Below the pieces are notes generated by a model. That model saw nothing but the letters and a program-made list of their open reading frames with translations. It was not told where the DNA came from and made no database searches. A DNA stretch of 64,000 bases from an uncultured Pseudomonadales bacterium (GTDB lineage Bacteria; Patescibacteriota; Microgenomatia; UBA1400; PJMF01): the NCBI GenBank assembly GCA_964648715.1, contig CAZYNM010000002.1, positions 25,056-89,055 of the forward strand, given 5' to 3'. The position numbers and the translations under genes were made by a program. Of the stretch, positions 2-42,145 are shown in pieces; positions within the stretch are counted from its first letter, which is position 1, and every line of letters starts with the position of its first letter.

Positions 2-412
2 TTTGACATCGCAAATAGTATTGGGACACCTGTCTATGCACCTTTTCCAGGGAAGGTATGTGACAAAGGCACTGATACAAAGCCCAGTGGTGGCTACGGT
101 CGCTATGCAAGCCTTGAGTTTTCTATGGGGTCTGCGACAGGTTTAGTTTTGTATTTTGGGCACTTTGCTCAGGGTCCAATGGAAGTGAGCGACGGTTTTG
201 ATAGCAGTCGCTGCAAGATGGTTAATCCGGGAGATATTATTGGTAAAATGGATGATACTGGCTATTCATTTGGCTCACACTTGCACTACGAACTACTTCG
301 TAACAGCCACGGTGTAAAATTGAAAGATCTTATTTTGGATTCGCCCCAAGTCATGAATAACTTTAATTCTGGTAAAGCAGTGTTTGTTAACCACTGTTTC
401 CCAGGAAAGTAA
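2..412 (+). CDS. M23 family peptidoglycan endopeptidase, C-terminal part (5' end lies outside the window)
   Basis: Reading frame is open from position 2: FDIANSIGTPVYAPFPGKV...GGYGRYASLEF...GDIIGKMDDTGYSFGSHLHYEL matches the M23/LytM catalytic core (xDI...GTPVxA, GYG, HLHYE). The track ORF 125..412 is the internal Met only. Confidence 0.7.
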   Translation, partial: FDIANSIGTPVYAPFPGKVCDKGTDTKPSGGYGRYASLEFSMGSATGLVLYFGHFAQGPMEVSDGFDSSRCKMVNPGDIIGKMDDTGYSFGSHLHYELLRNSHGVKLKDLILDSPQVMNNFNSGKAVFVNHCFPGK

Positions 413-416
413 CCAC

Positions 417-1409
417 ATGGAGTATATTGTTCAAGATCCAGTTCAACAAAAAAAACCAATCCCCTGGTTAGTTTATTTATTAGGAATAGTACTCATATTC
501 CTTGCTTTTAATTACGTATTAGCTTTCTTTACACCAAAAGGAGTGCCAGAACAGCCACTCCTCAGTACAAACTATGACGACACGAGCACGGCATTCTCTG
601 CAATTACGTATAGCGGAGTTCCTCCACAACTACCTTCTACACTACCAATCGCACAAGTGAGTACCACCTATAGTGACGCAGATGGATTTGAGAAGCGCGT
701 AAAAGATACCTATACTCTCAAACCTTTCCCTCAAATTTCAAACATGTGGGAGAGTGCTGAGTATTCACTCACTAAGCTGTCTCAACCAACACAATATATT
801 CTTATACGAAAAAATACAGAGCCGATTAACAAGACGATCATTGTTTCTGACGCACTAAGCACAGCACAAAAAGCGGTGAGTCAATTGTTTCCAGAAGAAA
901 AACTATCACCCATTAGTCAAACAGTAAAATTGTATCGTGTTCTTGATACTCCACACCCCGAACCAGCAGATCAACAAACAGCGAACTCTCTTGAAGTTTC
1001 TTTTGGCTACCAGTTGGGTCCCTATCCTGTTTTCTATCGAAAGGACTACACCTATCCTGTTACCATAATTGTGACTGCAGACGGGAAAGTTGGTAAAGTA
1101 ACGACCCAGCCATTTACTGCTGTTTTTTCAGAAAAAGGGAGTTATAAAACTGTCACGCTGAGCGAAGCATTAAAAAACATTGAGGCTGGAGATGGCGCAA
1201 TTATCTATCAGTCATTTCTAGGTTCAGGAACCCCATCGCTTAAAACCATATTACACGGTACGTTTACCTCTGTTTCACTTGAATATCGTGCTGACGAAAG
1301 CTCTGATTATCTGGTCCCTTACTACCGATTAAAAGGGACACTCACAAACAATGAAAATATTGATTTTGAAGCAGAAGTTATTACTCCCGCAATTCCAATA
1401 AAGCGGTAA
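417..1409 (+). CDS. Hypothetical membrane-anchored protein (one N-terminal TM helix, large extracytoplasmic domain)
   Basis: Track ORF 384..1409 begins at a TTG. The ATG at 417 lies 5 nt after the M23 stop and is preceded by GGAAAG. TM helix PIPWLVYLLGIVLIFLAFNYVLAFF. No recognisable catalytic motif. Confidence 0.5.
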   Translation: MEYIVQDPVQQKKPIPWLVYLLGIVLIFLAFNYVLAFFTPKGVPEQPLLSTNYDDTSTAFSAITYSGVPPQLPSTLPIAQVSTTYSDADGFEKRVKDTYTLKPFPQISNMWESAEYSLTKLSQPTQYILIRKNTEPINKTIIVSDALSTAQKAVSQLFPEEKLSPISQTVKLYRVLDTPHPEPADQQTANSLEVSFGYQLGPYPVFYRKDYTYPVTIIVTADGKVGKVTTQPFTAVFSEKGSYKTVTLSEALKNIEAGDGAIIYQSFLGSGTPSLKTILHGTFTSVSLEYRADESSDYLVPYYRLKGTLTNNENIDFEAEVITPAIPIKR

Positions 1410-1426
1410 AATAATAGGTGCTGCCC

Positions 1427-2611
1427 ATGAAAGAACACCCAATCCCGCAAGATATCACCAACTACCGCTTCCATATCGTGGGAAGCATGACACTCAAACA
1501 GTTTGGTGAGGTTGCAGCTGGTGTTGTCATTGCTTTTGTACTCTACAATACAAGTCTCATTGGCATTCTAAAGTGGCCACTTATAGCTATTTTTGCTCTT
1601 GGCGGCGCTGCCGCCGCCTTTGTTCCCATTGAAGAACGTCCTTTAAGCCATTGGATACAGACATTTATTGGTATTCTGTACCGGCCCACCCAGTTTTTTT
1701 GGAAACGCTCGTATAACATACCCGCACCTTTTTTGTTCAAAGGGAACGCAGAACAAGTTGTGCAGCTTAAGGAAATTGATTTAACACCAGCTCGTCGGCA
1801 ACGAATTAAAGAATTCATTTCTTCAACCCACGAACTTGAATCACATTCTTACACAGATGATGAAGTCACAAAAATGAACTCAGTCCTGACCTTGTTTGCT
1901 GATACAACTGTACGAGTACAGACTCGCTCAAAAGCAAGAGAAGTTGAAAAGCCCAGTCTTGAGGTTCGTGTACGCAGTATGCGTCAATTACATACCACTG
2001 AGATTGCATTGCCACATTCTGATGATCACGTTGCAATAAATGCACTTGATGGTGGAATTCGTATTGAAGATACCTACACCTTAGAAGATGTTGCTGCAAC
2101 CCGCGAGTACTCAGATAAGAAAACTGCTTACCTTGATCCATCACAAGTAGCACAATCACTACAAGTTCCTGAAATTGAAACAGTTAATCTTGATGTAAAA
2201 GTACTAACAGATGAAGCAGAAGCGTTGAGAAATCAACAAATATATTCTGGCGAGAGAGCCTTCAGTCCACAAACAGCACCAGAAAATAAGCCTGTGGCTG
2301 CCACAGAAACCGCGCTGTTTAATGCGACACTCCCGTTCCCAACAAAACCCAGTGTCCCCAATAAACTTGTGGGTATGGTTCTCACTCCACACAATGAGCT
2401 TATACCAGGTGCAATTGTTGAGATTAAAACATTGGAGGGACACGTTATTCGGGCTGTAAAAACAAACGCACTTGGCCAGTTCTTCATTACCACCCCACTC
2501 CTCAATGGGCAGTATGTAGTGAATGTTGAAAAAGATGGAAAATCCTTTATTCCTCAGTCTGTGGTGCTTGTGGGCGAAGTTGTAGAACCGCTTGAGATTC
2601 GTAGCAGTTAA
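1427..2611 (+). CDS. PrgI/VirB3-like T4SS membrane protein fused to a C-terminal carboxypeptidase-regulatory-like beta-sandwich domain
   Basis: N-terminus (ITNYRFHIVGSMTLKQFGEVAAGVVIAFVLY...WPLIAIFALGGAAAAFVPIE) fits the PrgI family pattern (short cytoplasmic lead, two TM helices). C-terminus (VGMVLTPHNELIPGAIVEIKTLEGHVIRAVKTNALGQFFITTPLLNGQYVVNVEKDGKSF) fits a CarboxypepD_reg-like fold. ATG at 1427 preferred over the GTG at 1418 (AGGTG 7 nt upstream). Confidence 0.5.
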   Translation: MKEHPIPQDITNYRFHIVGSMTLKQFGEVAAGVVIAFVLYNTSLIGILKWPLIAIFALGGAAAAFVPIEERPLSHWIQTFIGILYRPTQFFWKRSYNIPAPFLFKGNAEQVVQLKEIDLTPARRQRIKEFISSTHELESHSYTDDEVTKMNSVLTLFADTTVRVQTRSKAREVEKPSLEVRVRSMRQLHTTEIALPHSDDHVAINALDGGIRIEDTYTLEDVAATREYSDKKTAYLDPSQVAQSLQVPEIETVNLDVKVLTDEAEALRNQQIYSGERAFSPQTAPENKPVAATETALFNATLPFPTKPSVPNKLVGMVLTPHNELIPGAIVEIKTLEGHVIRAVKTNALGQFFITTPLLNGQYVVNVEKDGKSFIPQSVVLVGEVVEPLEIRSS

Positions 2612-2641
2612 AAATAGCCAAATACACGGTATACTAAACGT

Positions 2642-3613
2642 ATGTCTGAAGTTATCCAATCAACTACTCAGCAATTTTTGGATATATTTGATATAACCAA
2701 TAATTACGTCATCATGAAGGACGGAACCGCATCCGTTATCTTAACAGTTGATGCCATGAACTTTGGTTTGCTCGCTGAAGAGGAACAAGATGCCATTATG
2801 TATGCATATGCAGGACTCCTCAATTCGCTCAACTATCCTATCCAAATCTTAGTGCAGTCGCGCACAAAAGACGTAACAGCATACCTCAAACTACTTCAAG
2901 AACAAGAGGTGTCCACTGATAACCAGACAATGCAGCACAGAATACGCATGTATCGTGAGTTTGTAAGTAATTTAATTCATGAACGGAATGTGCTTGATAA
3001 GAAATTCTACGTAGTCATACCCGCCACAGCCATTGAAATGGGCATTGCTTCAGTAAAAGGACTTCTTCCTGGTCAAGCCCAGGTTGATCTTTCTACAGTA
3101 GAACGATCAGTCTTACTAGAAAAAGCACAAAACCTTCTTGATCCCAAGAGGGATCATTTAATCGCACAATTTGCACGCATTGGTTTGTATTCAAGACAGC
3201 TCAATACTCAAGAAATTATTCAGCTCTTCTACGTTCGGTACAATCCTGAGGCAGCAGAAGGTCAACAGATAGGAGAAAGTAGCAGCTACACCACACCATT
3301 GGTGAAAGCAAGTATGCAAGGTGCAGCTATAGCCGCAATCACTCAAGCGTCACAATTGGGTACTCCACAAGAGAGTACTACGGCATCACTTGTGAACACG
3401 CCAGATATACAACCCCCACAAGAATACTATGAACCTGCTCAACCCACTTTTGAACAACCTGAGGTATTACCACCAGTACAACCAATAGAAGAAATCCTGC
3501 CTCCACAAGTAGACACACCGCAACCAGTGGCTACAGAAGAGCTTCAACCTCTTTTCCCCTCTGTTGATGAAGCACCAGCCCCTGCCCTTCCCCCTCTACC
3601 TGAAATAAAGTAA
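2642..3613 (+). CDS. Hypothetical T4SS-associated protein; N-terminal ~100 aa reminiscent of the N-domain of VirB4/TrbE/PrgJ ATPases; P/Q-rich C-terminal tail
   Basis: DIFDITNNYVIMKDGTASVILTVDAMNFGLLAEEEQDAI...YPIQILVQSRTKDV resembles the conserved N-terminal segment of CagE/TrbE/VirB4. It sits directly upstream of the VirB4 ATPase gene. No P-loop. Confidence 0.4.
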   Translation: MSEVIQSTTQQFLDIFDITNNYVIMKDGTASVILTVDAMNFGLLAEEEQDAIMYAYAGLLNSLNYPIQILVQSRTKDVTAYLKLLQEQEVSTDNQTMQHRIRMYREFVSNLIHERNVLDKKFYVVIPATAIEMGIASVKGLLPGQAQVDLSTVERSVLLEKAQNLLDPKRDHLIAQFARIGLYSRQLNTQEIIQLFYVRYNPEAAEGQQIGESSSYTTPLVKASMQGAAIAAITQASQLGTPQESTTASLVNTPDIQPPQEYYEPAQPTFEQPEVLPPVQPIEEILPPQVDTPQPVATEELQPLFPSVDEAPAPALPPLPEIK

Positions 3614-3654
3614 GGCTTTGCTATTCGCTGTGTAGATAGGGTAAAATAGAAGTA

Positions 3655-5655
3655 ATGCCTAGTTTGTTGCCCACACTACCGCTGCCATTTCTTGGTAAGA
3701 AAAAACAAGAACCTACCTTAACGCCAGAACAACTCCAAGAAGAAAAAAACATGGAGAAGCTGCGTCAATTTTCTCGGGGACTCGTTACAATCCAGGATAT
3801 CATTGCACCAGAAGCTATTGAGGTAGACTTCACGTTTCAAAAAATTAATTCAACCTATACACGCACACTTTTTGTTGCAGGCTATCCACGCAGTGTTCCG
3901 GCCAACTGGCTTGCTCCGCTCATTAATTATCCCCATCAGATTACAACCAGCATGTTTGTATTTCCCGTTGATTCAGCAGAAATTCTTGACAACCTTAAGC
4001 GCAAAATCACCGAAATGGAAGCTGAAATTCAGTCAGATTTACGCGCAGGTAAGATTAGTAACATCAATACAGAAGTCAAACTCGAAGATGCCCGTTTTAT
4101 ACGTGAAGAGCTCGCAAAAGGATCAGAGCGGTTCTTCCAATTTGGCTTATATGTAACTATTCAAGCAAAAGACAAAGAAGAGCTTGATAGAGTCACCAAA
4201 AGTATTCAGTCAACACTCGGCGCTCTTTTGATTGTATCCAAAAAAGCCACTCTACAAATGGACGAAGGCTTCAAAACTACGCTCCCCATGGGAACCGATA
4301 AGTTACTGGTTACCCGTAACATGGATACTACTTCACTCGCTACGACATTTCCCTTTACTTCATCTGAGCTCACCATGGAGTCTGGCATTATGTATGGCAT
4401 CAATGAGCACAACGACTCTCTTGTCATCTTTGATCGCTTCAAAATGGAAAATGCGAACATGGTAATATTTGCTAAATCTGGTGCGGGTAAGTCATACACT
4501 GTCAAACTAGAGATTTTGCGCCAACTCATGTTTGGTGCTGAAGTAATTGTTATGGACCCCGAACATGAATATGAAGATCTCACAAAAGCAGTTGATGGTG
4601 AATACATTAATTTCACGTTTAACTCTAAATCAAAAATTAATCCCTTTGATCTAGCTAATCTGTACGAAGAAGGAGAAAATGAATTGGGACAAAAAATAAT
4701 CTCACTTCATGGACTTCTTAAAGTTATGTTGGGCGAGATGACTCCTCAGCAAGATGCCCTTCTTGATAGAGCGCTCGTTGCTGCCTATAAAGCCAAGGGT
4801 ATTACTCCCGATCCAGGGACTCAAAACAATGAACCCCCACTCATGGAGGATGTCTACAAAGCATTGATAGGCATGGAAAGCAAAGATGCAGACGATATTT
4901 CAGCTCGTTTAGAGAAGTTTATCACTGGTTCTTTTAGAGGTATATTTGATCAAAAATCAAATATAGATTTAACAAAACAACTCACTGTTTTTTCGGTAAA
5001 AGAAATGGAAGAAGAGATGCGTCCAATTGCTATGTATATTATCTTGGACTTTATCTGGACACGTGTACGAAAATCAATGAAAAAACGCTTACTTATTATT
5101 GATGAGGCTTGGTATTTTATGAAACACCCAGATTCTGCCTCATTTATTTATTCTATGGTGAAGAGAGCTCGTAAATATTACTTAGGGATCACTACGATCA
5201 CTCAAGACGTTGAAGACTTTTTACATACTGATTTCGGAAAAGCTATTGTTACCAATGCATCAATTCAGTTTCTTATGAAACAATCGACAGCATCTATTCC
5301 TGTGCTGGCTGAAACCTTTTACCTTTCACAAGGTGAACGGCAACTTTTGGTAACTGCAGATGTTGGTGAAGGAATTTTCTTTGCTGGACAAAACCATGTT
5401 GCTTTGCGTGTTGTCGCAAGCGATGAAGAACACACCCTTATCACTACCAATCCAGAAGAAGTTATGGCCCGTAAACAAACAATTCTCCAGCAAAGAACTA
5501 CTGTTACCATGCAGCAGCCTATTGCCCAAGCTCCTGTACAGACAGTCCAACCTATTGCAAAAGCAACGGTCCAACAAGCTTCCCAACCAGCCCAGCCCCG
5601 TCAATTAACATCATACGACTCAATTGAGAACTACGTTCCACCTCAAAGATCATAG
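3655..5655 (+). CDS. virB4: VirB4/TrbE/CagE-family type IV secretion ATPase
   Basis: N-domain pattern (TRTLFVAGYPRSVPANWLAPL), Walker A FAKSGAGKSYT, Walker B LLIIDEAWYF, 666 aa. Confidence 0.75.
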   Translation: MPSLLPTLPLPFLGKKKQEPTLTPEQLQEEKNMEKLRQFSRGLVTIQDIIAPEAIEVDFTFQKINSTYTRTLFVAGYPRSVPANWLAPLINYPHQITTSMFVFPVDSAEILDNLKRKITEMEAEIQSDLRAGKISNINTEVKLEDARFIREELAKGSERFFQFGLYVTIQAKDKEELDRVTKSIQSTLGALLIVSKKATLQMDEGFKTTLPMGTDKLLVTRNMDTTSLATTFPFTSSELTMESGIMYGINEHNDSLVIFDRFKMENANMVIFAKSGAGKSYTVKLEILRQLMFGAEVIVMDPEHEYEDLTKAVDGEYINFTFNSKSKINPFDLANLYEEGENELGQKIISLHGLLKVMLGEMTPQQDALLDRALVAAYKAKGITPDPGTQNNEPPLMEDVYKALIGMESKDADDISARLEKFITGSFRGIFDQKSNIDLTKQLTVFSVKEMEEEMRPIAMYIILDFIWTRVRKSMKKRLLIIDEAWYFMKHPDSASFIYSMVKRARKYYLGITTITQDVEDFLHTDFGKAIVTNASIQFLMKQSTASIPVLAETFYLSQGERQLLVTADVGEGIFFAGQNHVALRVVASDEEHTLITTNPEEVMARKQTILQQRTTVTMQQPIAQAPVQTVQPIAKATVQQASQPAQPRQLTSYDSIENYVPPQRS

Positions 5656-5669
5656 AATTTCCCCCTTGC

Positions 5670-5720
5670 GCTGTGGGGAAAACTCTGTGTATAACTACAG
5701 TACTTTCCTTGCCACAAACA
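5670..5720. promoter_or_regulatory. DnaA-box-like 9-mers upstream of dnaA (TGTGGGGAA at 5673..5681, TGTGTATAA at 5686..5694)
   Basis: Reverse complements TTCCCCACA and TTATACACA match the TTATnCACA DnaA-box pattern at 7 or 8 of 9 positions; typical autoregulatory placement. Confidence 0.35.
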
Positions 5721-5743
5721 GTAGTATGTAGGATCAGAGGTGT

Positions 5744-7213
5744 ATGTCTCGTGATATTATTTCTCTTTGGAACCAATATTGTGCTGAGATAACCACAAAA
5801 GTGAGTCCAGCGGTTTACAACACTTGGATTCTTTCCAACCCCATCACTGATTATTCTGACCAGAATTTGAATTCACGAGTTACTATTACCTGCCCCACTG
5901 CATTTCATGCGACTAATTTACAAAAGAACCTTCACATGACAATACAGTCTGTCCTTGAAGGCGTACTGGGTAAGCCATGTACTATACAATATGAAGTGGG
6001 AGACCCCATTGCACAGAAGAAAGAGCATAATGCACAACCTTCATCTGCAACGACACCCCCTCTTCTCGACCCCTTTACTCATTTTTCTCAGGCTCAGACG
6101 CAATCACCTCGAGTTGAAGAACTTTTTTCACAGCATACGCTTCAGTCTGCACAAGAAGATAGATTTCAACTTCAAGCACGAACAATTGGTCTACGAACAG
6201 ACTATACGTTTGCGACCTTTGCTGTCTCAACAACCAACGAGATGGCGCATGCTGCAGCTACTGCTGTGTCTAATAGGCCCGGACTTTCCTATAATCCACT
6301 TTTCCTGTATGGAGGTGTTGGTGTTGGAAAAACACATCTAATGCACGCTATTGGCAGTAATATCTTACAAGCCAATCCTATGACCAAGATTATCTATTGC
6401 ACTGGAGAAGAATTTACCAACGACATTGTGCATGCCATTCAGACAAAGAAAGCGACTTCATTTAAAGATAAGTTTCGTTCTCCCAATGTTCTTTTAATAG
6501 ATGACATCCAGTTCATAGCAGGTAAAAATGCCGTACAAGAAGAATTTTTTCATACATTCAACGCGCTTATTAAGCAGCAAAGCCAGGTAGTACTCACCTC
6601 AGACCGACCTCCACATGAAATCACGTTATTGGAAGACCGTCTTCGTTCCCGCTTTGAAGCTGGCTTAATGATTGATATCCAGCAACCATCATTTGAGTTA
6701 CGAACCGCAATTGTGTTGGTAAAAGCCAAGGCACAAATGATTGCTATGTCTATAGATATGGCAAAAATTATTGCATCCAAAGTAGAAAGTGCTCGCAAGA
6801 TCGAAGGAGTGATTACAAGTATTCGTTCAGCAATAGAGTTACGTCATAGAAGCTTGGATGCAGATTTACTTGATGAACTTTTACAGTCAGAAATAGAAAC
6901 TAAACGAAATAGAATCAAAGTTGCTCCTGCTGACGTAATTAAGACGGTTGCCAATCACTATCATATAAAACAAGCATCATTAAAGGGAACAAGTCGTCTA
7001 AAAAATTTAGTTACTGCACGTCATATTGCCATGTATCTGTTAAAAAAAGAGCTTTCACTTCCCTTGGTTGAGATTGGCCGTTGGTTTACCGGCAGAGATC
7101 ATACCAGTGTTCTACATGCTGTCAAAAAAATTGAAAAAGACATTGTTTTTGACGAACAATTAAAACAAGATATTTCCGCTCTTCAAACAACCCTTTCTGC
7201 TATTTCAAGATAG
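5744..7213 (+). CDS. dnaA: Chromosomal replication initiator protein DnaA
   Basis: AAA+ Walker A LFLYGGVGVGKTHLMHAIG; LLIDDIQFIAGKNAVQEEFFHTFNAL; sensor/box VIII LTSDRPP; C-terminal DNA-binding domain (RHIAMYLLKKELSLPLVEIGRWFTGRDHTSVLHAVKKI). RBS AGAGG upstream. Confidence 0.95.
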   Translation: MSRDIISLWNQYCAEITTKVSPAVYNTWILSNPITDYSDQNLNSRVTITCPTAFHATNLQKNLHMTIQSVLEGVLGKPCTIQYEVGDPIAQKKEHNAQPSSATTPPLLDPFTHFSQAQTQSPRVEELFSQHTLQSAQEDRFQLQARTIGLRTDYTFATFAVSTTNEMAHAAATAVSNRPGLSYNPLFLYGGVGVGKTHLMHAIGSNILQANPMTKIIYCTGEEFTNDIVHAIQTKKATSFKDKFRSPNVLLIDDIQFIAGKNAVQEEFFHTFNALIKQQSQVVLTSDRPPHEITLLEDRLRSRFEAGLMIDIQQPSFELRTAIVLVKAKAQMIAMSIDMAKIIASKVESARKIEGVITSIRSAIELRHRSLDADLLDELLQSEIETKRNRIKVAPADVIKTVANHYHIKQASLKGTSRLKNLVTARHIAMYLLKKELSLPLVEIGRWFTGRDHTSVLHAVKKIEKDIVFDEQLKQDISALQTTLSAISR

Positions 7214-7487
7214 AGGTTATGCACAGATGTGCATAACACTGTGCAGAACTACACAACAGCCTGTGAAAAAAAATAGTACTTATGCACTGCTTACACAGTT
7301 TTAAAAGTTGTTCACAAAATACTCCCCACATTGTGCACAGAGAAATACACAGATAGCACCAGGTCATATTCACAGGCTGTACACAGTAGTATTTCCAGAT
7401 GTATACTAGGGCATTCTCCACATTTTCCGACTGCCCTACTATTACTACAACTAATATATAGTAAGAAAAATAGAGAAAAGAACTTTC
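7202..7487. promoter_or_regulatory. oriC candidate (dnaA-dnaN intergenic): cluster of DnaA-box-like 9-mers plus AT-rich unwinding tract
   Basis: TTATGCACA at 7207..7215 and its inverted partner TGTGCATAA at 7218..7226 form a near-perfect palindrome TTATGCACAGATGTGCATAA. Further boxes: TGTGCAGAA at 7230..7238, TTATGCACT near 7280, TTGTTCACA near 7310, TTGTGCACA near 7332, TGTACACAG near 7378. AT-rich stretch ACTAATATATAGTAAGAAAAATAGAGAAAAG immediately upstream of dnaN. Confidence 0.6.
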
Positions 7488-8594
7488 ATGCAATTTCATA
7501 TACAACAAAAAGAATTAGAGCGTGCATTGAACTTCCTCCAAAAGGCAATTCCTGCTCGTCCACAATTGCCAGTACTTTCTGCTCTGCTCATTACCACTAC
7601 GAAAGATACGTGTAGTATTGCCGCAACAGATCTGTATTTTGGAGTACGGGTAACTATGCCAATTACTGAATCACAAGAGGGTTCTGTAGCTGTTCCGGGG
7701 AAAGAGTTCAGAGAACTTATTCAGTCTTTGCCTTCAACTGCAACTGTACAACTCACCTTGAATGAGAATACAGTGACTCTAACTGCTGGAAAGATTAGAT
7801 GCACGTTACAATGCCTGGATAGTAAAGATTATCCAGCTTTTCCAGAACTATCTGGTGAGACCATCTCACTCAGTAGTACATTACTTCAACAAGTTGTTAA
7901 GTATGTAACCCAAAGCACTTCGCTAGATCAAGCACGCCCGCTGCTAACTGGTATTCTCTTCTCTTTTTCTGATAGCACAGTCCGTTGTGTAGGAACAGAT
8001 GGCTTTCGTCTGTCTATTCTTGATGCTGAAAGTATGAGCTCTTATGCAGAATCATTTATATTGCCAGCCAAGACCCTTGCAGAAGCTGTTAGAATCATTG
8101 ACCAGTTATCAGTTTCAGAGGCTGTTTTGACCATCTCCAAGACCCTTAAACAAGTGTATTGCACAGCAGAGGGGGTTGAGATTTTTATGCGTTTGCTAGA
8201 AGGTGAATATCCTCCGTACCAAAAAATAATCCCTGTTACTCATGCTACAGAGCTAGTTGTGTCTGCAGAAGTTCTTATAGAACAAGTGAAACGGGCACTA
8301 ATCTACTCGCGAGATTCTTCAAGCGTGATTACTTTTTCTATAACAGAGCAACACTGCAGTATCTCAGCAACATCTTCCACTCTAGGTAACTACCATGCAG
8401 AAGTAGAAGAAGCTCAAGTAAAAGGTACTGATGTTACTATCTCATTTAAAGCAAAGTACTTGCTCGATTTTTTAAGTACAGTTCCTGATTCAGATATCTG
8501 GATGGGAATGAACGAAAGTCTCAAACCTGTGCTCTTCAAAGCACAAAAAGTGTCGAACCTCCAGTATGTTGTTATGCCCTTCCGAGTAACGTAA
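7488..8594 (+). CDS. dnaN: DNA polymerase III beta subunit (sliding clamp)
   Basis: MQFHIQQKELERALNFLQKAIPARPQLPVLSALLITT...; three-domain length of 368 aa; canonical position after dnaA. Confidence 0.9.
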   Translation: MQFHIQQKELERALNFLQKAIPARPQLPVLSALLITTTKDTCSIAATDLYFGVRVTMPITESQEGSVAVPGKEFRELIQSLPSTATVQLTLNENTVTLTAGKIRCTLQCLDSKDYPAFPELSGETISLSSTLLQQVVKYVTQSTSLDQARPLLTGILFSFSDSTVRCVGTDGFRLSILDAESMSSYAESFILPAKTLAEAVRIIDQLSVSEAVLTISKTLKQVYCTAEGVEIFMRLLEGEYPPYQKIIPVTHATELVVSAEVLIEQVKRALIYSRDSSSVITFSITEQHCSISATSSTLGNYHAEVEEAQVKGTDVTISFKAKYLLDFLSTVPDSDIWMGMNESLKPVLFKAQKVSNLQYVVMPFRVT

Positions 8595-17365: not shown

Positions 17366-17842
17366 TCACCTGAGAGCCTTGTAGAGCGATTTTATTTCGT
17401 CAGAAAGGAGGAGCACAGCAGGTACGATAATAGTCAGTATGAAACCCCATGGCGTTCGTATGAACTGTACAACGTACCCAAATTTTGGGATGACAAGTAT
17501 AACGGTGCCTACTATTTGTGAAAGTGAAATCGTTTCGGTATCTGGAGTTTGATTGGCATCACCCTTGGTGGTGTAGCTGGGCGGTTGGGTTGTTCGTACA
17601 GCAGTAATGCGGTGTGTGATGGTGTGTTTGTTTTCATCCTTAAACGTTATGACTTCATTAAGTTGGTATGAATTGTGTTTTGCAATGATAATAATATCTC
17701 CCACACGTATTGTGGGTTCCATAGAACCAGATTGCACGACATAGCTTTTAAAAGGAGTATGTGTGCGGAAAAAGCGAACTGCTGCATACGTTGTAACTCC
17801 GGCTAAAATGGCAATAAAAAGTAAGAACAGAAATTGACGCAT
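17366..17842 (-). CDS. sipW: Signal peptidase I, SipW/archaeal-eukaryotic type (S26), copy 1
   Basis: N-terminal TM helix then VVQSGSMEPTIRVGDIIII (Ser nucleophile in the SGSMEP context typical of SipW/Sec11-type SPases); 158 aa. Confidence 0.8.
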   Translation of the reverse strand: MRQFLFLLFIAILAGVTTYAAVRFFRTHTPFKSYVVQSGSMEPTIRVGDIIIIAKHNSYQLNEVITFKDENKHTITHRITAVRTTQPPSYTTKGDANQTPDTETISLSQIVGTVILVIPKFGYVVQFIRTPWGFILTIIVPAVLLLSDEIKSLYKALR

Positions 17843-17848
17843 AGCTAA

Positions 17849-18517
17849 CTATTCTTGAGTTGGTGATGAGGTTGCCCCGGGCAGTACTTGTCTCAGTTGG
17901 AAGGTAGTTGCAAAAGTGACACTGTCACTTTGTACCTCGTTCTCAAAATGGCTTTCTGCGACAGACCAAGAAAGCTCTACTGTTTTTGTTTCACCCGGTG
18001 GAATTATCACCTTTCCAGCTTTTTCCTGCCACAGTTGTGCAAATGTTTCACTTCCTTGAGTGCTTAGTATATGGCTAAAAAGTGTGGTAGATGAGCCGCC
18101 ATCTTTAAGTGAAACTGTGGTAGTGATGTGCTGGCCAAGTTCACCTTGATTGTCACCTGGGTCAGCACAAGTGGTATCAACCAGCGCCTCGGGTTCATTA
18201 CAACCGTTTTCAAGGTTGTGGATATTTGTTACCGCAAAATGCAGTTCACCTGGTAGTGTACCTACGTTTTTGATGTTCCATCGTTTTCCACCGTTTGTGA
18301 TATGTTGCGCACCTATGCCTTGTACTGTAAGGGTATCAGCTTGAGTAGAGGATTCTCCGCTCACAGTCATGTCTAGTGTACCCACTACAAATTGATTTTC
18401 ACCAGAAGTCTCTCGATCAATAAAAAGAGCTTGGGTGGTCATAAAGCCTACTACGGCAATCACAGAAAAAATAAAAACACTCTTTACTGCTATCAATGAA
18501 TGACTCTTTTTTTTCAT
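17849..18517 (-). CDS. TasA/camelysin-like secreted protein with SipW-cognate class signal peptide, copy 1
   Basis: MKKKSHSLIAVKSVFIFSVIAVVGFMTTQALFIDRETSGENQFVVGTLDMTVSG fits the AxFxDxExSxxNxFxxGTLD(L/M) signature of SipW-dependent signal peptides. ATG at 18517 preferred; the track ORF starts at a GTG at 18526. Confidence 0.7.
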   Translation of the reverse strand: MKKKSHSLIAVKSVFIFSVIAVVGFMTTQALFIDRETSGENQFVVGTLDMTVSGESSTQADTLTVQGIGAQHITNGGKRWNIKNVGTLPGELHFAVTNIHNLENGCNEPEALVDTTCADPGDNQGELGQHITTTVSLKDGGSSTTLFSHILSTQGSETFAQLWQEKAGKVIIPPGETKTVELSWSVAESHFENEVQSDSVTFATTFQLRQVLPGATSSPTQE

Positions 18518-18540
18518 GCTCCACACATCATTGTCTCATT

Positions 18541-19194
18541 TTACTGCTGGTGCGTCCATGCACCCGTCGTTACTGTGTTTTGTAGTACTTCAGTATCGGA
18601 AAAGTGATCTTCTTCTGTTCGTTGTGTTGAAAAATCAAAAGCAAAGTGACAACTGCTATTCATAAGTTCAGACTCACTTCCTGGTAGCTCAAGAGCAAAG
18701 ACATAATCAAGTGCTGCGCTACCACTAGGAAGAACATCTGAAAAGTGTGCTTCAAGTAGAGGACCACTATAGACTGCTGCCCAATTCTTGAATATTTTAA
18801 GTTGTAAATTGACACACACTGCAGCTGTGCCACCTGTCTGGCGCGTGGAAAGGGTAAATGGTGTGCTCTGCTGCCCGGTATTTTTTATTCTCACGCTTTC
18901 TACTGCTAATCCTGTATATTTCATGTCAGAAATGGAGAAGAGGAGTGAAGTATCTTGTTCTGTTGCCGAGTTTAATTGGGAAAAGTCGAGTGTTGTTGCT
19001 TGCAGAGAGTGTGGGCTAACAACTTCTTCATCAAATAAATCCGCGTCAGTGAAATCGGAATAGCCAGCAAATAATGCTGTAATGAAAATGACAAGTAGGA
19101 GGAAACGTACTCCGTGCTTCACCGTATCTTTATGTACTTGTACGTTGTTTCTTAAATACTTCAGATGCAGCAATGACAACAAGTGGAGTGACAA
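18541..19194 (-). CDS. Third SipW-cognate-signal protein (TapA-like accessory or minor subunit?)
   Basis: ...KHGVRFLLLVIFITALFAGYSDFTDADLFDEEVVSPHSLQATTLDFSQ has h-region + ALF + acidic + TLD(F) like the two TasA-like proteins. Start uncertain: TTG at 19194 (overlaps sipW-2 by 65 nt) or GTG at 19122 (gives M-K-H-G-V-R + hydrophobic core, no overlap). Confidence 0.45.
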   Translation of the reverse strand: MSLHLLSLLHLKYLRNNVQVHKDTVKHGVRFLLLVIFITALFAGYSDFTDADLFDEEVVSPHSLQATTLDFSQLNSATEQDTSLLFSISDMKYTGLAVESVRIKNTGQQSTPFTLSTRQTGGTAAVCVNLQLKIFKNWAAVYSGPLLEAHFSDVLPSGSAALDYVFALELPGSESELMNSSCHFAFDFSTQRTEEDHFSDTEVLQNTVTTGAWTHQQ

Positions 19195-19630
19195 TTAGGA
19201 TGAAAACACCTGGTCTACTACTGGCGTATAAAAGAACCTTTCCAATTTTTGGAATTGAAAATAGTAGCTTTCCAATAACTTTATCTTGAGACACAGGATC
19301 AACATCTTTGGTTTTATTGTTATCACCCTTGGTTGTATAGGAGAAAGCGTCCGTGGTTTTTTTCTCGATAATCCTGTGCGTAATGACAGAGTCTTTTGTT
19401 CCTCTAAAGGTAATGACATCATGTACTGCATACTCCGGTGCTTCACGAGTAAAAATTACGTCGCCCGGTGTGAGCATAGGAAGCATAGAGCCTGTTGTGA
19501 CGATGAAACTGCGAAAAGGTAATCCACTTGATTGTCGTGCAGATGCACCAATTAAAAGAGATGCAATTGCATAGCTACAGTACACAATCCAAAAAAGTAT
19601 TTGTGCCAAGTGAAGTAAAGCATGTTTCAT
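19130..19630 (-). CDS. sipW: Signal peptidase I, SipW type (S26), copy 2
   Basis: TM helix then IVTTGSMLPMLTPGDVIFT; 166 aa; paralogous to 17366..17842. Confidence 0.8.
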   Translation of the reverse strand: MKHALLHLAQILFWIVYCSYAIASLLIGASARQSSGLPFRSFIVTTGSMLPMLTPGDVIFTREAPEYAVHDVITFRGTKDSVITHRIIEKKTTDAFSYTTKGDNNKTKDVDPVSQDKVIGKLLFSIPKIGKVLLYASSRPGVFILIVTPLVVIAASEVFKKQRTST

Positions 19631-19697
19631 TGTTTCTTTCCTTTAACGCAAAGAGGAGGGGACACCCCTCCTCATATGCGTTTAGTGTTCGTTAGTA

Positions 19698-20342
19698 TTA
19701 AGATGGTGTTACTTGTGTTAGGTCGAACTGAACTCCAAAAGTGAGACTGTCACTTTGAATTTCATTGCCATATGAAGAAGGATCGTTGGCCCAGTTCATC
19801 TTAACTTTAACTTGGCCGCCAGCTGGAATTGTGACTGTACCTGCATTTGTGCCCCATTGTGTGGCGTATTGAGGTTGGTTGGCAGTTGCTAGATTTGCTG
19901 AGACGACTGTTTGATATGTCTCACTAGATCCAGCACCATCTTTATCAAGTTGCACAGTTGTTGCTACTGCGTTACCAAGTTCTCCCTCGCCATTGCCGGG
20001 GGTACTGCACGTTGTATCAACAATAGCTTCTGGCTCATTGCAGCCATTTTCTGTATTGGTAAGAGAGTTAAGTCTGAAGGTTAAAGTTCCTGGCACGGTT
20101 CCAGAATTTCGAATAACCCACTCTTTTTCTCCAGAAACTGTTCCATCAACACCAATGTTATTAACTGCAATAGTGTCAAAAGCCGTTCCGTTGTTACCAT
20201 CAACAGTCATATCTAATGTACCAGCAGTAAGTGCGTTTGTCCCTGAAGTTTCTGTATCACTGAACAGAGCTTGCGTGAGCGCATAGCCACCTCCAATAAG
20301 TGATGCAGTTACCAGAAGAAAGAGCAGAATTTTTTTCTTCAT
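19698..20342 (-). CDS. TasA/camelysin-like secreted protein with SipW-cognate class signal peptide, copy 2
   Basis: MKKKILLFLLVTASLIGGGYALTQALFSDTETSGTNALTAGTLDMTVDG. Shares a conserved core with copy 1 (NGCNEPEAIVDTTCSTPGNGEGELG versus NGCNEPEALVDTTCADPGDNQGELG). Confidence 0.7.
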   Translation of the reverse strand: MKKKILLFLLVTASLIGGGYALTQALFSDTETSGTNALTAGTLDMTVDGNNGTAFDTIAVNNIGVDGTVSGEKEWVIRNSGTVPGTLTFRLNSLTNTENGCNEPEAIVDTTCSTPGNGEGELGNAVATTVQLDKDGAGSSETYQTVVSANLATANQPQYATQWGTNAGTVTIPAGGQVKVKMNWANDPSSYGNEIQSDSLTFGVQFDLTQVTPS

Positions 20343-20611
20343 ATTTCCTTTTATATTTTTGTACTAGTACGCTTTCCTATACTTTTATTTTTACTGCTTT
20401 ATATCTGTGTATCGCATGTTTCTTTGATGCATACATGATGCACATTGGTATTTGGCTTTGTTATGCATAAAATGGAATTGTCTGTCTATTTTTGATGTTT
20501 ATTACACTGATTGATAATAAAAAATATATGACAATAACACTGCAACTCATCTAGCATACGTACTATGAGTGACAGCGTCAACTGAATACAAAATGATCAA
20601 AGATACACAAT

Positions 20612-21691
20612 CTATTCTTGGGATGATGAATCACGTTTTTTTCTCCAGAAGAGAAAAAAGAAAAGCCACAATAGTGCAACAAAACAAAAAACAGCATAAA
20701 GCAATATAATTGATCTCTTTGCACTAGATGCATTCCTGTACTCTTGCTTTATTGGTTGAGGTACCGTAGTGGTAGCGCCTAAAACAATACCACTTTGGGT
20801 AGCTGGTGTTGCTGAGGGGAGTGATTGATGATGTTCTGCTTTTTCTTTAGCAAGAACAGTGAGAAGTACGGGTTCGCTCATGCCACACCTATTACTTGAG
20901 CGTATGTCCACTCTATGTGTCTCTGTAGTAGAGAGTCCCGCTACATCCCAGTGAGAAGCGTGTTCAACCTGAATGTTGTCAAACTGCTTATTTGTCTCTA
21001 GCGCATGGATGGTAATGTGATAAGTAACAGCAGGCTGCGTTGTCCAACTTATACGGAGTTTTTTCTCTTTCCACACAGCTGTAACATCTGTGGGTGAGAT
21101 TGGAATAACGCAGTGCGGGGGGGGACTTGCAGTTGGCACTGGGGAGGAAGTTGGCAGTGCTGTAGGTGGAAGGGGAGCGTGAAAATCTGGACCACACATT
21201 GTATGAAAGGTAAAGAAAAACGATGTTGTTTTGTTTTGATATGTGTTATCTGCATTTTGTGGAAATAGTATTTGCCACGTTGTGTGTGCGACTGCGTTGG
21301 GATTAACAATAAGGAGTGTTGTAGGGGTTGAGCGAGAAAATAACGTTGCTAGAAGTACTGGGGTAACTAATTGTTGTGGATATGCAGCTTGGTAAAGTGA
21401 CAGCTGTAGAACAGTGGCGAGCTCCTGCGAGGTTCCCTCTGTGGGGTGTGTCTGGAATGAAACTGAACAGCCATATCGTGGATGGGTATTGTGAAACACG
21501 ACTTCTTTAGAAAGAATGGTCCCCGGAACAAAGCTTGTTTGTGAAAACAGTACTGGTTGCTCTGGAACAGTTTTGCAATCTGATTCACCATCACACACAA
21601 TCTTGACCTCTTCAGCATCCGCGAGCGTTTCCTCAGGAATGCTAAGAAAAAGTATAGAAAAAAGTAACAAAAGAAGAAGGGTTTTTTTCAC
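20612..21691 (-). CDS. Secreted surface protein: signal peptide, Cys-containing extracellular domain, C-terminal TM anchor with basic tail
   Basis: MKKTLLLLLLFSILFLSIPEETLA...; C-terminus IILLYAVFCFVALLWLFFFLFWRKKRDSSSQE. GTG start. No LPXTG seen before the anchor. Confidence 0.5.
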   Translation of the reverse strand: MKKTLLLLLLFSILFLSIPEETLADAEEVKIVCDGESDCKTVPEQPVLFSQTSFVPGTILSKEVVFHNTHPRYGCSVSFQTHPTEGTSQELATVLQLSLYQAAYPQQLVTPVLLATLFSRSTPTTLLIVNPNAVAHTTWQILFPQNADNTYQNKTTSFFFTFHTMCGPDFHAPLPPTALPTSSPVPTASPPPHCVIPISPTDVTAVWKEKKLRISWTTQPAVTYHITIHALETNKQFDNIQVEHASHWDVAGLSTTETHRVDIRSSNRCGMSEPVLLTVLAKEKAEHHQSLPSATPATQSGIVLGATTTVPQPIKQEYRNASSAKRSIILLYAVFCFVALLWLFFFLFWRKKRDSSSQE

Positions 21692-29880: not shown

Positions 29881-32019
29881 CTACTTTTTATTTGCAGCGT
29901 AACGCTCACGACTTACTTTAACCACTTTATCTTTGTTTTTATTGCTACTCTTTGCCAGAGGGAGTGTCTCGGCTGGGAAGGGCTCCGAGATCATGTTGTT
30001 GATGGTAATTTTATTGACTATTTGATGTTTACCTAATGAAACAAGTTCATCTGCTGTGTAGCGGTTGTTAAATTCACGAGCCAGAACACCTGCATCCTCA
30101 GATCCAGTGACAAAGCTCACTATACTACCACAGTTGCCGAAAATTGCTTTTTGTACATCTTCTGGAATCTGTCCCATATATTGGTTAGCAAGAATAAGGT
30201 CAAGACGATACTTACGTGCTTCAGATAGAATCTTGGTAAATGATTCGGTTGCGAAGTTCTGGAACTCGTCTACGTACAAATAAAAATCGCGCCGTTCCTC
30301 TTCAGGAATATGAACACGAGCCATAGCAGCAAGCTGAATCTTGGTGATAAGCATGGCTCCTAGCAGTGTCGCATTATCTTCTCCCAACTTGCCTTGTGAT
30401 AGGTTGACCAAGATAATCTTGCCGGTATCCATCGCTTCTTCAATACTAAACGAACTATAGCGCGAATTGACCACATCACGAACCAATGGAGAGGAAACAA
30501 ACTGTCCCACTTTATTTAAGATAGGAGCAATTGCCTCGGTGCGTAACTTCTCTTGCATGGTGTCAAACTCTTGTTCCCAGAAATTCTTGAGAATATCATC
30601 ATCAAGTTGGGCAACCAGTTTTTGACGGAATGACTTGTTGGTAAGCATCTCAATAATGTCCGACAAGCGCGCTGTCTCACTCTTAAGGAGGGTTAGTAGT
30701 GCATTGCGTAGAATGTACTCAAGCCTAGGTCCCCAGGAGTAGGCATATAACTTGCGAAAAACAGACACGATACCAGATGCAATAAGTTCACGATGCACAA
30801 TATTAGTTCCCTCAAAGAGGTTTATCTGAACTGTTTTTTCTGGATCGCTGGGATCAAAGTAAATGACGTCATTAATACGACGTGAGGGAATATAGTTAAG
30901 GAGTGTCTCAACTAAATCGCCATGAGGATCAATCACACACATCCCCTCATCATTCTTTAAGTCACTGATAGCCATGTTGGCCAATAGAGTAGATTTACCG
31001 GTGCCGGTTTTTCCGATTACGTACATATGACGTCGTCTATCAACACGATGAACACCATACACATTTGCCACGTTCTTATAAATTGTTCTAGCAAAGGCAT
31101 TAATGTCTTTTTTCTGTTCCGCAGGAGTTTGAGCGGTGATCACAGGGAGATTCTCTGGTGGTTCACCCAGTAACTTTCTGCCCCAGGCAATGTTGGGAAT
31201 ACTAGCAATAACTGGAGTAGGGAGATGAAACATCGTGGCCAACTCATCAACCGAAAAATGTTGGGTGTCAAACAGGCCAAATGACCGATCGAGTATTTTT
31301 TGTTTAAGCAGCTCGGGAAAGAAATATGCTCGTTTCAAACTCAGCGAATTGCTTTCACTTTTAGTGATTCCTTGGAATGTTTGTGCGATTGTCTCGAGCA
31401 AATGGACGCTTCTGTGTTTTGTTTCTGCACCCACAAGTATCCGCAGGGCAACATCACACGATTGCTGGTTCCGTTTCATATCTATGAGTGCTTGTTGGGG
31501 ATGTGGTGTAGAGGAAGTAGAGAGTGCAGAAGAAGGAAAATAGTGACTTGGTCTACTAATTACATACTGAATCACTGCATGATCTTGTGCCCTTAATTGT
31601 GAGAGTGTTGCTATAAGTGGCATGAGTGGATCTGTCTGTGAGAAGTCTTTGTATGTTTTGAGCGGCAGAGCGGAGCCGTTTGAAAGCACCATGGTTCCAA
31701 CTGTGTACTCTCTTGGTTGTCCAGTAGCTGAAGTAAAGAGAGGATCGTGATCAAGTTTGGTGACATGCACATCCGGGTATGCAGCAGTGAGAATACTAAT
31801 AGTGTAATCAGCTACTCTCTCTGGACAATATAAAACAAAGCTAATCCGCTGTTCTTTGACATGAATCTCAAGACTCATATGTTCAAAACGCTGCAGAAGG
31901 TGATCCCACCAATAGTTGTGTAGATCTGGAAGCGTAGAGATAAACTGAATTATTGCCTCTGAGGTGTATGTGTTCGTTTTGGACACTTTAAGCTCGTATG
32001 CTACATGGCTTACTGACAT
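29881..32019 (-). CDS. P-loop NTPase of the FtsK/HerA/TraG-VirD4 (AAA-like, DUF87-type) superfamily; possible type IV coupling-protein-like ATPase
   Basis: Walker A MYVIGKTGTGKSTLLANM; Walker B DFYLYVDEFQNFAT; 712 aa with no N-terminal TM helices. Family assignment is approximate. Confidence 0.5.
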   Translation of the reverse strand: MSVSHVAYELKVSKTNTYTSEAIIQFISTLPDLHNYWWDHLLQRFEHMSLEIHVKEQRISFVLYCPERVADYTISILTAAYPDVHVTKLDHDPLFTSATGQPREYTVGTMVLSNGSALPLKTYKDFSQTDPLMPLIATLSQLRAQDHAVIQYVISRPSHYFPSSALSTSSTPHPQQALIDMKRNQQSCDVALRILVGAETKHRSVHLLETIAQTFQGITKSESNSLSLKRAYFFPELLKQKILDRSFGLFDTQHFSVDELATMFHLPTPVIASIPNIAWGRKLLGEPPENLPVITAQTPAEQKKDINAFARTIYKNVANVYGVHRVDRRRHMYVIGKTGTGKSTLLANMAISDLKNDEGMCVIDPHGDLVETLLNYIPSRRINDVIYFDPSDPEKTVQINLFEGTNIVHRELIASGIVSVFRKLYAYSWGPRLEYILRNALLTLLKSETARLSDIIEMLTNKSFRQKLVAQLDDDILKNFWEQEFDTMQEKLRTEAIAPILNKVGQFVSSPLVRDVVNSRYSSFSIEEAMDTGKIILVNLSQGKLGEDNATLLGAMLITKIQLAAMARVHIPEEERRDFYLYVDEFQNFATESFTKILSEARKYRLDLILANQYMGQIPEDVQKAIFGNCGSIVSFVTGSEDAGVLAREFNNRYTADELVSLGKHQIVNKITINNMISEPFPAETLPLAKSSNKNKDKVVKVSRERYAANKK

Positions 32020-32546: not shown

Positions 32547-33299
32547 ATGTCGTTAGTTCTTGCAACCCATGGACAGCTCCTCCAAACGAACTTTCCTAGA
32601 GTACGTAATCGTCTTGTTGGTGTACGTTTGGCAGGACTTCCACAAAGAAGTGCGACAATTAAAAAATTAAAAGCGTATAGCATTGTTGTTCTACGCTTTG
32701 TTTTATTTTCCATTATTATCACCGCATGTCTCGTTATTGGTAGTTTGGTTATACCTGAGTTAAGCAGTCGTCTGTTCTCAGACACCCAAGAAGGGGTTTT
32801 TGTACAGGCGGGTGAGCAACATGTAGAACCCAGTACTGCTCAAGTAAAAAAACCTATTGAGCGTCCTGTTGATGCAACACTGCCACAGGGGACATGGATC
32901 CGCATTCCGTCAATAGGGGTCAATACTCAAGCGAGACCTTTGCAGAATGCAGATGAAGCGCTGGCCGAAGGTGCGTGGATGGTCCCTGATTTTGGCAGAC
33001 CAGGAGACGAGACACAACCAACTATTATGGCTGCGCATCGATATGGCTGGAAGTGGTGGTGGCAAAGTGACTATTGGAAGCTAAACTCATTTTATCTGCT
33101 CACCGAAACAAAACCAGGAGACACAATTGAGGTTGTGTCTGATCAAAAGAAGTATATATACGAGATTTATGCCAGTGGGGAAGGTGAAGAGATAACCGAC
33201 TACTCAGCAGACTTAATCTTATACACCTGTAAGTTTATGAACTCTCCAATTCGCTATTTTAGATATGCCAAACTACACCCCTATGTGGACGCAGTTTAG
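32547..33299 (+). CDS. Sortase-family transpeptidase (membrane-anchored)
   Basis: N-terminal TM helix, then TWIRIPSIGVNTQARPLQ...TIMAAHRYGW...LILYTC: conserved sortase His (AHR) and catalytic Cys (YTC) contexts. Confidence 0.7.
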   Translation: MSLVLATHGQLLQTNFPRVRNRLVGVRLAGLPQRSATIKKLKAYSIVVLRFVLFSIIITACLVIGSLVIPELSSRLFSDTQEGVFVQAGEQHVEPSTAQVKKPIERPVDATLPQGTWIRIPSIGVNTQARPLQNADEALAEGAWMVPDFGRPGDETQPTIMAAHRYGWKWWWQSDYWKLNSFYLLTETKPGDTIEVVSDQKKYIYEIYASGEGEEITDYSADLILYTCKFMNSPIRYFRYAKLHPYVDAV

Positions 33300-41585: not shown

Positions 41586-41608
41586 ACAAAATGTGCTACA
41601 ACTATAGT

Positions 41609-42142: not shown

Positions 42143-42145
42143 ATT

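Follow-up and report, generated by a model that had tools for sequence, protein, structure and literature searches.

A chromosomal gene cluster for a type IV secretion system (T4SS) of ultra-small Patescibacteria, very probably intact and kept beside dnaA, opens the 64,000-nucleotide stretch of DNA analysed here (the window; contig CAZYNM010000002.1, from an uncultured bacterium placed in the Microgenomatia). The system is probably a translocon for interaction with a host cell rather than a conjugation machine. Systems of this kind, often placed beside dnaA and devoid of conjugation genes, were published between 2023 and 2025, and the locus is one more ordinary case: no new kind of system, but a clean and compact five-gene example with a split VirB4. 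As first proposed, the ORF map shows five tightly spaced, co-directional open reading frames (ORFs) on the plus strand, the last of which stops 88 bp 5' of dnaA. The features to which we refer throughout are the following:

2..412, plus strand: ORF 1, open at the window start; last 136 amino acids (aa) of a giant envelope protein, with a C-terminal M23 metallopeptidase domain.
417..1409 (alternative start 384), plus strand: ORF 2, a 330-aa single-pass membrane protein.
1427..2611 (alternative start 1418), plus strand: ORF 3, a 394-aa extended PrgI/VirB3-like protein.
2642..3613, plus strand: ORF 4, a 323-aa TrsD-like protein, the detached VirB4 N-domain.
3655..5655, plus strand: ORF 5, a 666-aa VirB4 ATPase, middle and C-terminal motor domains.
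5656..5743: spacer between VirB4 and dnaA, 88 bp, with one DnaA-box-like 9-mer at 5686-5694.
5744..7213, plus strand: dnaA (Pfam Bac_DnaA E 1.7e-64, Bac_DnaA_C E 4.6e-24).
7214..7487: spacer between dnaA and dnaN, with two DnaA-box-like 9-mers in inverted orientation that together form a palindrome (TTATGCACA) at 7216-7237; candidate oriC.
7488..8594, plus strand: dnaN; the L001 orthologue carries DNA_pol3_beta domains.
29881..32019, minus strand: VirD4-like ATPase (Pfam TrwB_AAD_bind, TraG-D_C), 24 kb from VirB4.

The gaps between successive genes, from ORF 1 to dnaA, measure 4, 17, 30, 41 and 88 bp, and the starts chosen at 417 and 1427 agree with sequences held at NCBI (330 aa, P0121, and 394 aa, respectively).

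The identity of the motor is the firmest element of this assignment. The ORF 5 product scored 381.2 bits with the NCBIfam model of the VirB4-like CD1110 family (NF045971, conju_CD1110), above the cut-off of 325, and its closest solved relative is the RecA-like C-terminal domain of a VirB4 (PDB 4ag5, E 2.8e-44). Both the Walker A motif (AKSGAGKS, residues 273-280, nt 4471-4494) and the Walker B motif (LLIIDE, residues 479-484, nt 5089-5106) are intact, as expected of the bona fide VirB4 ATPase recognised in the first-pass annotation, and the protein ends in a Gln-rich tail. At least 7,999 relatives of ORF 5 were found, and the best 120 of these are 76-97% identical to it; among these 120, the named ones mostly bear the labels Woesebacteria, Pacebacteria or Patescibacteria, with one Pseudomonadales. 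The relatives of the locus likewise carry the labels Woesebacteria, Pacebacteria and Microgenomates. Such source labels suggest that the lineage corresponds to the GTDB Microgenomatia; NCBI taxonomy gives Minisyncoccota only. The nearest plasmid-borne VirB4 proteins belong to Bacillota and Actinomycetota, do not exceed 36% identity and lie in modules with a relaxase and an adjacent VirD4. The close relatives and the distant plasmid proteins would agree with a place of this VirB4 in the patescibacterial clade nested in MPF_FATA.

ORF 5 covers positions 176-734 of the 752 in the CD1110 model, so that the N-terminal domain is not on the same polypeptide. The missing part is accounted for by ORF 4, a separate homologue of the VirB4 N-terminus adjoining virB4: it matches positions 103-238 of the 894 in the NCBIfam model VirB4_plasma (E 2.2e-8), and ORF 5 matches positions 285-893 of that same model. 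In addition, the relatives of ORF 4, which number 1,708 among the 1.84 billion representative proteins scanned, include an unsplit VirB4 of 787 aa (P0248), covering CD1110 model positions 3-735. Residues 3-199 of this protein align with residues 2-201 of ORF 4 at 48% identity, and its residues 213-771 align with residues 50-607 of ORF 5 at 64% identity. Since the unsplit protein aligns with ORF 4 and then with ORF 5, we conclude that VirB4 is divided here between two genes.

Specifically, residues 1-205 of ORF 4 form the VirB4 N-domain, while the rest of the protein (206-323, about 118 residues) is a tail in which Pro, Gln and Glu abound. The VirB4_plasma match recurs in 70 of 75 orthologues. 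Searched by sequence against the PDB, both the protein and its 75-sequence profile gave low-complexity matches only. Structure prediction was more informative: in an AlphaFold model of the N-domain (pLDDT 85.6), the 13 best fold matches in the PDB were all chains of TrwK/VirB4 from plasmid R388, with a probability of 0.9-1.0 and a TMq of at most 0.47, the Foldseek E-values being weak (0.005-0.12) and the sequence identity 7-15%. Taken together with the family placement and the alignment with P0248, these matches bear out the likeness between the 323-aa protein and the VirB4 N-domain that had been suggested earlier. The known complex offers a point of comparison, namely TrwM(VirB3)-TrwK(VirB4) of R388 (PDB 7o41, 8rtb). 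The N-domain model superposes best on TrwK, which suggests that the predicted domain may have the same docking role beside VirB3; R388 differs in being a diderm system with a single-chain VirB4, in addition to the low identity and weak E-values just given.

A VirB3-type partner is encoded directly upstream. The ORF 3 product carries an N-terminal PrgI domain with two predicted transmembrane (TM) helices, arranged as a hairpin at residues 29-62, followed by a variable linker and by a C-terminal beta-sandwich resembling CarboxypepD_reg (Pfam E 2.7e-6). This added C-terminal part is the reason why, at 394 aa, the protein is not small. The window protein matches the PrgI model slightly short of its cut-off, all of its 69 orthologues match it at E<=1e-3 (best 2.4e-9), and CarboxypepD_reg is found in 68 of the 69; the proposed PrgI/VirB3 identity of 1427..2611 is thereby sustained. 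The profile of the PrgI-like family retrieved beta-sandwich domains only when compared with the PDB. Comparison with hhalign of the family alignments with the single proteins PrgL and PrgI of plasmid pCF10 gave nothing, even for PrgI, so that this comparison has no power and its negatives were not counted.

The first gene of the cluster is only partly contained in the window. ORF 1 matches Pfam Peptidase_M23 with 47.9 bits (E 1.6e-12), above the cut-off of 28.7, and holds the HLH (HxH) metal-binding motif at residue 93, as anticipated for an M23 cell-wall hydrolase. The SHxxxD motif of the family comes shortly before the window begins and does not vary among the relatives, across which the columns GCWPTSG, SHxxxD and HLH are conserved. 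The part of the protein 5' of the window was read from two close relatives, L001, whose VirB4 is 96% identical to that of the window, and L002, with 86% identity and lying on a 1.37-Mb contig. There, the full-length orthologues (L001:1854-6716 and L002:1585-6399) measure 1,604-1,620 aa with the M23 domain at the end, and across the relatives the size of this giant protein is 1,100-1,620 aa, with 3-6 predicted TM helices. The N-terminal part is long and shows no convincing TM helices. Next come 2-4 clustered TM helices, at about 530-420 residues before the C-terminus, then a low-complexity loop and one or two more TM helices, the TM clusters spanning 530-320 aa from the C-terminus, and a conserved surface domain precedes the terminal M23 domain.

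No M23 domain was detectable in the giant ORF 5' of the PrgI-like gene in six relatives (L007, L008, L014, L032, L070 and L082), and these proteins are still homologous to the others over the remaining length. The M23 domain is therefore an optional C-terminal module. These data also correct the earlier claim that the locus has no VirB6-like polytopic protein: ORF 1 ends a giant protein, polytopic in close relatives and with its membrane part outside the window, which may be a VirB6-type subunit. The giant protein, with 3-6 predicted TM helices against the five or more looked for in VirB6/PrgH/TrbL proteins, gave no match to the VirB6/TrbL profiles of Pfam. An hhalign comparison of the family alignment with PrgH of pCF10 gave no match either, a low-power test whose negative was not counted.

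As to ORF 2, a single N-terminal TM helix (residues 18-36) is predicted, in agreement with the TM-anchored protein first proposed, and scans of Pfam and NCBIfam returned no family match. The AlphaFold model, built on a 14-sequence alignment, has a pLDDT of 85.5 and a pTM of 0.73 and consists of this helix followed by three alpha/beta domains. In a Foldseek comparison with the PDB, its only significant match was YycH (9a5d_B, E 2.6e-5, 283 columns, TMq 0.43), and none of the top 50 PDB matches was described as VirB8-like, a group (PrgL/TcpC/TraM) marked by an NTF2-like domain behind an N-terminal TM helix. YycH, a regulator of the WalK kinase in Bacillus, shares with ORF 2 the N-terminal TM anchor and the three alpha/beta domains; it differs in sequence (13% identity), and the window yielded no kinase of WalK type. 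Functional analogy is not implied. The orthologues of ORF 2 are only 22-39% identical, as befits a fast-evolving protein. Its position and topology would fit a scaffold role, and the fold matches do not establish it as a VirB8.

To place the cluster among its relatives, the window proteins were mapped onto 80 loci from species-representative genomes, chosen by VirB4 similarity. dnaA is the next gene in all 69 loci with enough downstream sequence, and the TrsD-like and PrgI-like genes lie upstream of VirB4 in all 61 loci with enough upstream sequence. Because the gene arrangement recurs in related genomes, it is not due to chance. The median identity to the window is 79% for VirB4 (a value inflated by the VirB4-based choice of loci), 60% for the TrsD-like protein, 56% for DnaA, 44% for the PrgI-like protein, 38% for both DnaN and the M23 protein, and 26% for the 330-aa protein. 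In 72 of 72 genomes VirB4 is more identical to its window counterpart than DnaA is, a within-genome ranking that holds in spite of the way in which the loci were chosen. The cytoplasmic motor is thus more conserved while the predicted extracellular parts diverge fast, which places the motor under very strong constraint. The higher conservation of VirB4 than of DnaA, seen at the level of sequence, fits an essential role of housekeeping rank. In addition, the predicted operon constantly includes the giant polytopic protein and the YycH-like one, which may fill the roles of VirB6 and VirB8, respectively, without being recognised as such.

Among the loci L003-L082, the title 'uncultured Pseudomonadales bacterium' stands on many records of metagenome-assembled genomes, and 'Limisphaerales' or 'candidate division TM6' on single ones. 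The same patescibacterial locus near dnaA is present in every one of them, and such titles therefore look like mislabelled submissions.

Genes expected of a conjugative element were sought among the window ORFs of at least 120 aa, which were annotated or scanned save for short ORFs nested in longer genes. No match to relaxase, MobC or integrase catalytic families emerged from this set, the tRNA and Rfam scans of the window were empty, and the GC content of the block matches that of the neighbouring DNA. The first-pass annotation had stated that relaxase and adjacent coupling protein were both lacking. The former statement holds for the ORFs covered; as to the latter, no coupling protein adjoins the cluster, but a VirD4-like ATPase does lie in the window, 24 kb away at 29881..32019. 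It matches Pfam TrwB_AAD_bind (E 6.6e-11) and TraG-D_C (E 2.2e-5). Coupling proteins typically carry N-terminal TM helices; in this protein no TM helix is predicted, and its 320-aa N-terminal region is without a family. This ATPase is a possible partner of the system, or may now serve a different function. No VirD4-like gene occurs within 10 kb in any of the 80 loci. As for VirB2-like pilins, a crude test based on hydrophobicity only found no small ORFs with two TM helices in the unassigned parts of the window.

All together, the fixed dnaA synteny in the relatives with flanking sequence, the lack of relaxase and integrase matches and the very high conservation support the chromosomal and non-conjugative nature first attributed to this T4SS. 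They also correspond closely to published surveys. Among the 3,035 Patescibacteria genomes surveyed by Quinonero-Coronel et al. 2025 (PMC12102498), VirB4 forms a monophyletic clade nested in the monoderm conjugation class MPF_FATA; TrsD, the homologue of the VirB4 N-terminus, is its commonest partner, and PrgI/VirB3 homologues are present. In that survey, coupling proteins are mostly distant from virB4, there are almost no relaxases, VirB6 is scarce, and dnaA, dnaN, rnpA and rpmH are often nearby, Microgenomatia included. Our locus shares with this clade the VirB4 with adjoining TrsD-like and PrgI/VirB3 genes, the chromosomal and relaxase-free setting, the VirD4-like gene far from virB4 and the neighbourhood of dnaA/dnaN and rnpA/rpmH. 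Differences are few. An array of VirB2-like pilins near virB4, frequent and not universal in the survey, was not seen near virB4 here by our crude test. VirB3 was reported near virB4 for 22.6% of Microgenomatia homologues, whereas a PrgI-type gene is adjacent in 61 of 61 relatives in our set. Neither the giant polytopic protein with M23 nor the YycH-like one is mentioned in the main text of the survey. What the present locus adds to these papers amounts to small refinements, namely the PrgI adjacency, the constancy of the giant and YycH-like proteins, and the conservation of VirB4 beyond that of DnaA.

The idea of a non-conjugative T4SS kept by episymbionts, put forward in the first-pass annotation, was right, but had been published earlier (PMC12102498, PMC10633639). 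Wang et al. 2023 (PMC10633639) found the T4SS genes SEML1_0006-0019 to be essential for the epibiotic growth of Southlakia epibionticum and proposed protein export or another non-conjugative role, and a 2025 review (PMC12857230) restates the essentiality, the patescibacterial T4SS being the first reported as essential for the growth of its bearer.

A comparison with conjugative systems of monoderms locates both the kinship and the distance. The Prg/Pcf system of pCF10 from Enterococcus faecalis and a module on a Brevibacillus plasmid likewise have PrgI directly 5' of a VirB4 from the CD1110 family; their block also contains a large cell-wall hydrolase, and a VirD4 relative of CD1115 type is present. 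In these modules, VirB4 is a single chain of about 800 aa, whereas it is split in two genes here; PrgI is small (117-136 aa) against 394 aa; the hydrolase, of NlpC/P60 or lysozyme type (PrgK), follows VirB4, whereas M23 precedes it here; VirD4 is adjacent, with MobC and relaxase present, against a distance of 24 kb and neither of the two found here; and the module resides on a plasmid rather than on a chromosome beside dnaA, with VirB4 identities not above 36%. The gene order in pCF10 is PrgH-PrgI-PrgJ-PrgK-PrgL. Therefore, the claim that the order of the window genes mirrors a Gram-positive T4SS core stands for the succession of PrgI and VirB4 and fails for the hydrolase, which lies on the opposite side of VirB4 from that of pCF10.

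The staphylococcal Trs system, in which TrsE is the VirB4 homologue, shares another trait with the window locus. In pGO1/pSK41, a separate TrsD homologous to the VirB4 N-terminus is encoded, the only conjugative prototype of this kind (PMC12102498). The 323-aa protein differs in its weak TrsD score (24 bits vs 200) and in its long Pro/Gln-rich tail, and it is closer to the N-domain of the single-chain VirB4 of CD1110 type (48%, P0248) than to TrsD.

On these grounds, the following picture of a host-interaction translocon can be drawn. PrgI and the N-domain protein would dock the VirB4 hexamer on the membrane, much as their counterparts, VirB3 and the N-terminal part of VirB4, do in the solved complex of R388; the giant protein would supply the membrane channel together with local cutting of the wall; and the predicted extracellular parts, that is the M23 domain, the 330-aa protein and the PrgI tail, would contact the host cell, which may be why they diverge fast. 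The machine would move macromolecules between epibiont and host rather than mobilise its own DNA. What such a T4SS carries bears on how ultra-small episymbionts live off their hosts. In a bolder version of this picture, which we hold only tentatively, the missing translocon parts could in fact be present, the giant protein being a fusion of a VirB6-type channel with a VirB1-type wall cutter and the YycH-like protein a VirB8 scaffold. If so, the cluster would be a complete but unrecognisable five-gene T4SS, with a motor that evolves more slowly than DnaA and predicted surface parts that evolve very fast.

Several points weigh against an intact translocon conserved beside dnaA. Its status as an operon is suggested by the short spacers between the genes, and promoter and terminator scans gave chance-level matches only. 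The PrgI match of the window protein (PF12666, E 1.7e-5, 25.7 bits) is slightly below the cut-off of 27. The match of ORF 4 to the TrsD/TraD model (NF041427, E 2.6e-5, 24.1 bits) is far below the cut-off of 200, which by sequence makes the protein a relative of the TrsD/TraD family lying outside it by the curated threshold. The VirD4-like ATPase reaches 52.7 bits with NCBIfam conju_CD1115 (E 3.1e-14), again far below a cut-off of 250. As the comparisons recognised no homologue of VirB6, VirB8 or VirB2, the evidence falls short of a complete channel. To these points are added the inflation of the VirB4 identities mentioned above and the fact that the evidence of essentiality comes from a saccharibacterium only, a different lineage. 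Lastly, the cumulative GC skew has its minimum not at dnaA but at about 12-14 kb, the point at which the genes switch from the plus to the minus strand.

Among the alternatives, the best placed is a machine for DNA import like archaeal Ced or Helicobacter ComB, by which a cell unable to make nucleotides would take up nucleic acid from its host or the environment; we regard it as improbable. The 666-aa protein also matches NCBIfam CedB (E 4.7e-16) and CedD (E 4.2e-8), both far below their cut-offs, and import would agree with the lack of a relaxase match in the window. A 2026 preprint ties the monophyletic VirB4 clade to macromolecule transfer in a relative feeding on host RNA, in which tubular structures were seen at the host interface. 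Moreover, four type IV pilin-like genes lie in the window, and Ced import requires type IV pili (PMC12102498). However, the conjugation-type CD1110 model scores 381 bits against 58.5 for CedB, and no Ced-type membrane partner was identified in the window. In addition, DNA uptake in S. epibionticum requires comEC and can be dispensed with, unlike the T4SS, which is essential (PMC12857230), and so the essential role in that organism is not competence.

A translocon retained for interaction with the host is also preferred to a resident or decayed integrative and conjugative element (ICE) that integrated beside dnaA by chance, a reading which we reject as highly unlikely. It could draw on the fact that the closest named relatives of each recognisable part are monoderm conjugation systems, and on the VirD4-like gene in the same window. 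Such an element is hard to reconcile with a gene order beside dnaA common to 69 of 69 species-level relatives, with a VirB4 that is better conserved than DnaA and has intact Walker motifs, or with flavokinase and EamA genes, that is housekeeping genes, 5' of the giant gene in both L001 and L002. The matching GC content and the empty scans of the window for relaxase, MobC, integrase and tRNA point the same way, and the reading is strongly disfavoured. Finally, that the ATPase might be a translocase of FtsK/HerA type unrelated to any T4SS, its neighbours being coincidental envelope proteins, is refuted, in spite of a match to the HerA central domain (Pfam DUF87, E 1.4e-9), by the CD1110 score above the curated cut-off and by the solved VirB4 as best structural relative (4ag5), with the PrgI and VirB4 N-domain proteins invariably adjacent.

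The region around dnaA deserves a brief description. The spacer between dnaA and dnaN contains, at 7216..7237, a perfect palindrome, GTTATGCACA-TCTG-TGCATAAC, which forms an inverted pair of DnaA-box-like sequences. A search of the window for DnaA boxes gave 5 matches, where 3.9 were expected. The grouping of three of these near dnaA is no more than suggestive. The T4SS genes are transcribed towards dnaA and, if oriC is located at dnaA, they would run head-on to the leftward fork.

Other parts of the window hold further genes of note. A single ORF of 5,298 aa occupies 44432..60328 on the minus strand, with a GC content of about 0.46 against about 0.41 elsewhere; its sole Pfam match, close to the N-terminus, is to a short domain of Phage_int_SAM-like type, and its last 1,298 aa are without a match. 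On the minus strand at 17366..21691, an S26 signal peptidase and a Peptidase_M73 (camelysin/TasA-like) protein are encoded together with four ORFs without a family, an arrangement that we take to be reminiscent of a SipW/TasA-type fibre locus. A sortase (32547..33299, plus strand) adjoins a 558-aa ORF without a family (33303..34979, minus strand), and a second M23 hydrolase, with two LysM domains, is encoded at 36535..37653 on the plus strand. Four tandem type IV pilin-like genes, each with an N-terminal methylation motif and a T2SSG domain, lie at 41100..43047 on the plus strand, and they probably encode minor pilins of the type IV pilus used by Patescibacteria for adhesion to the host.

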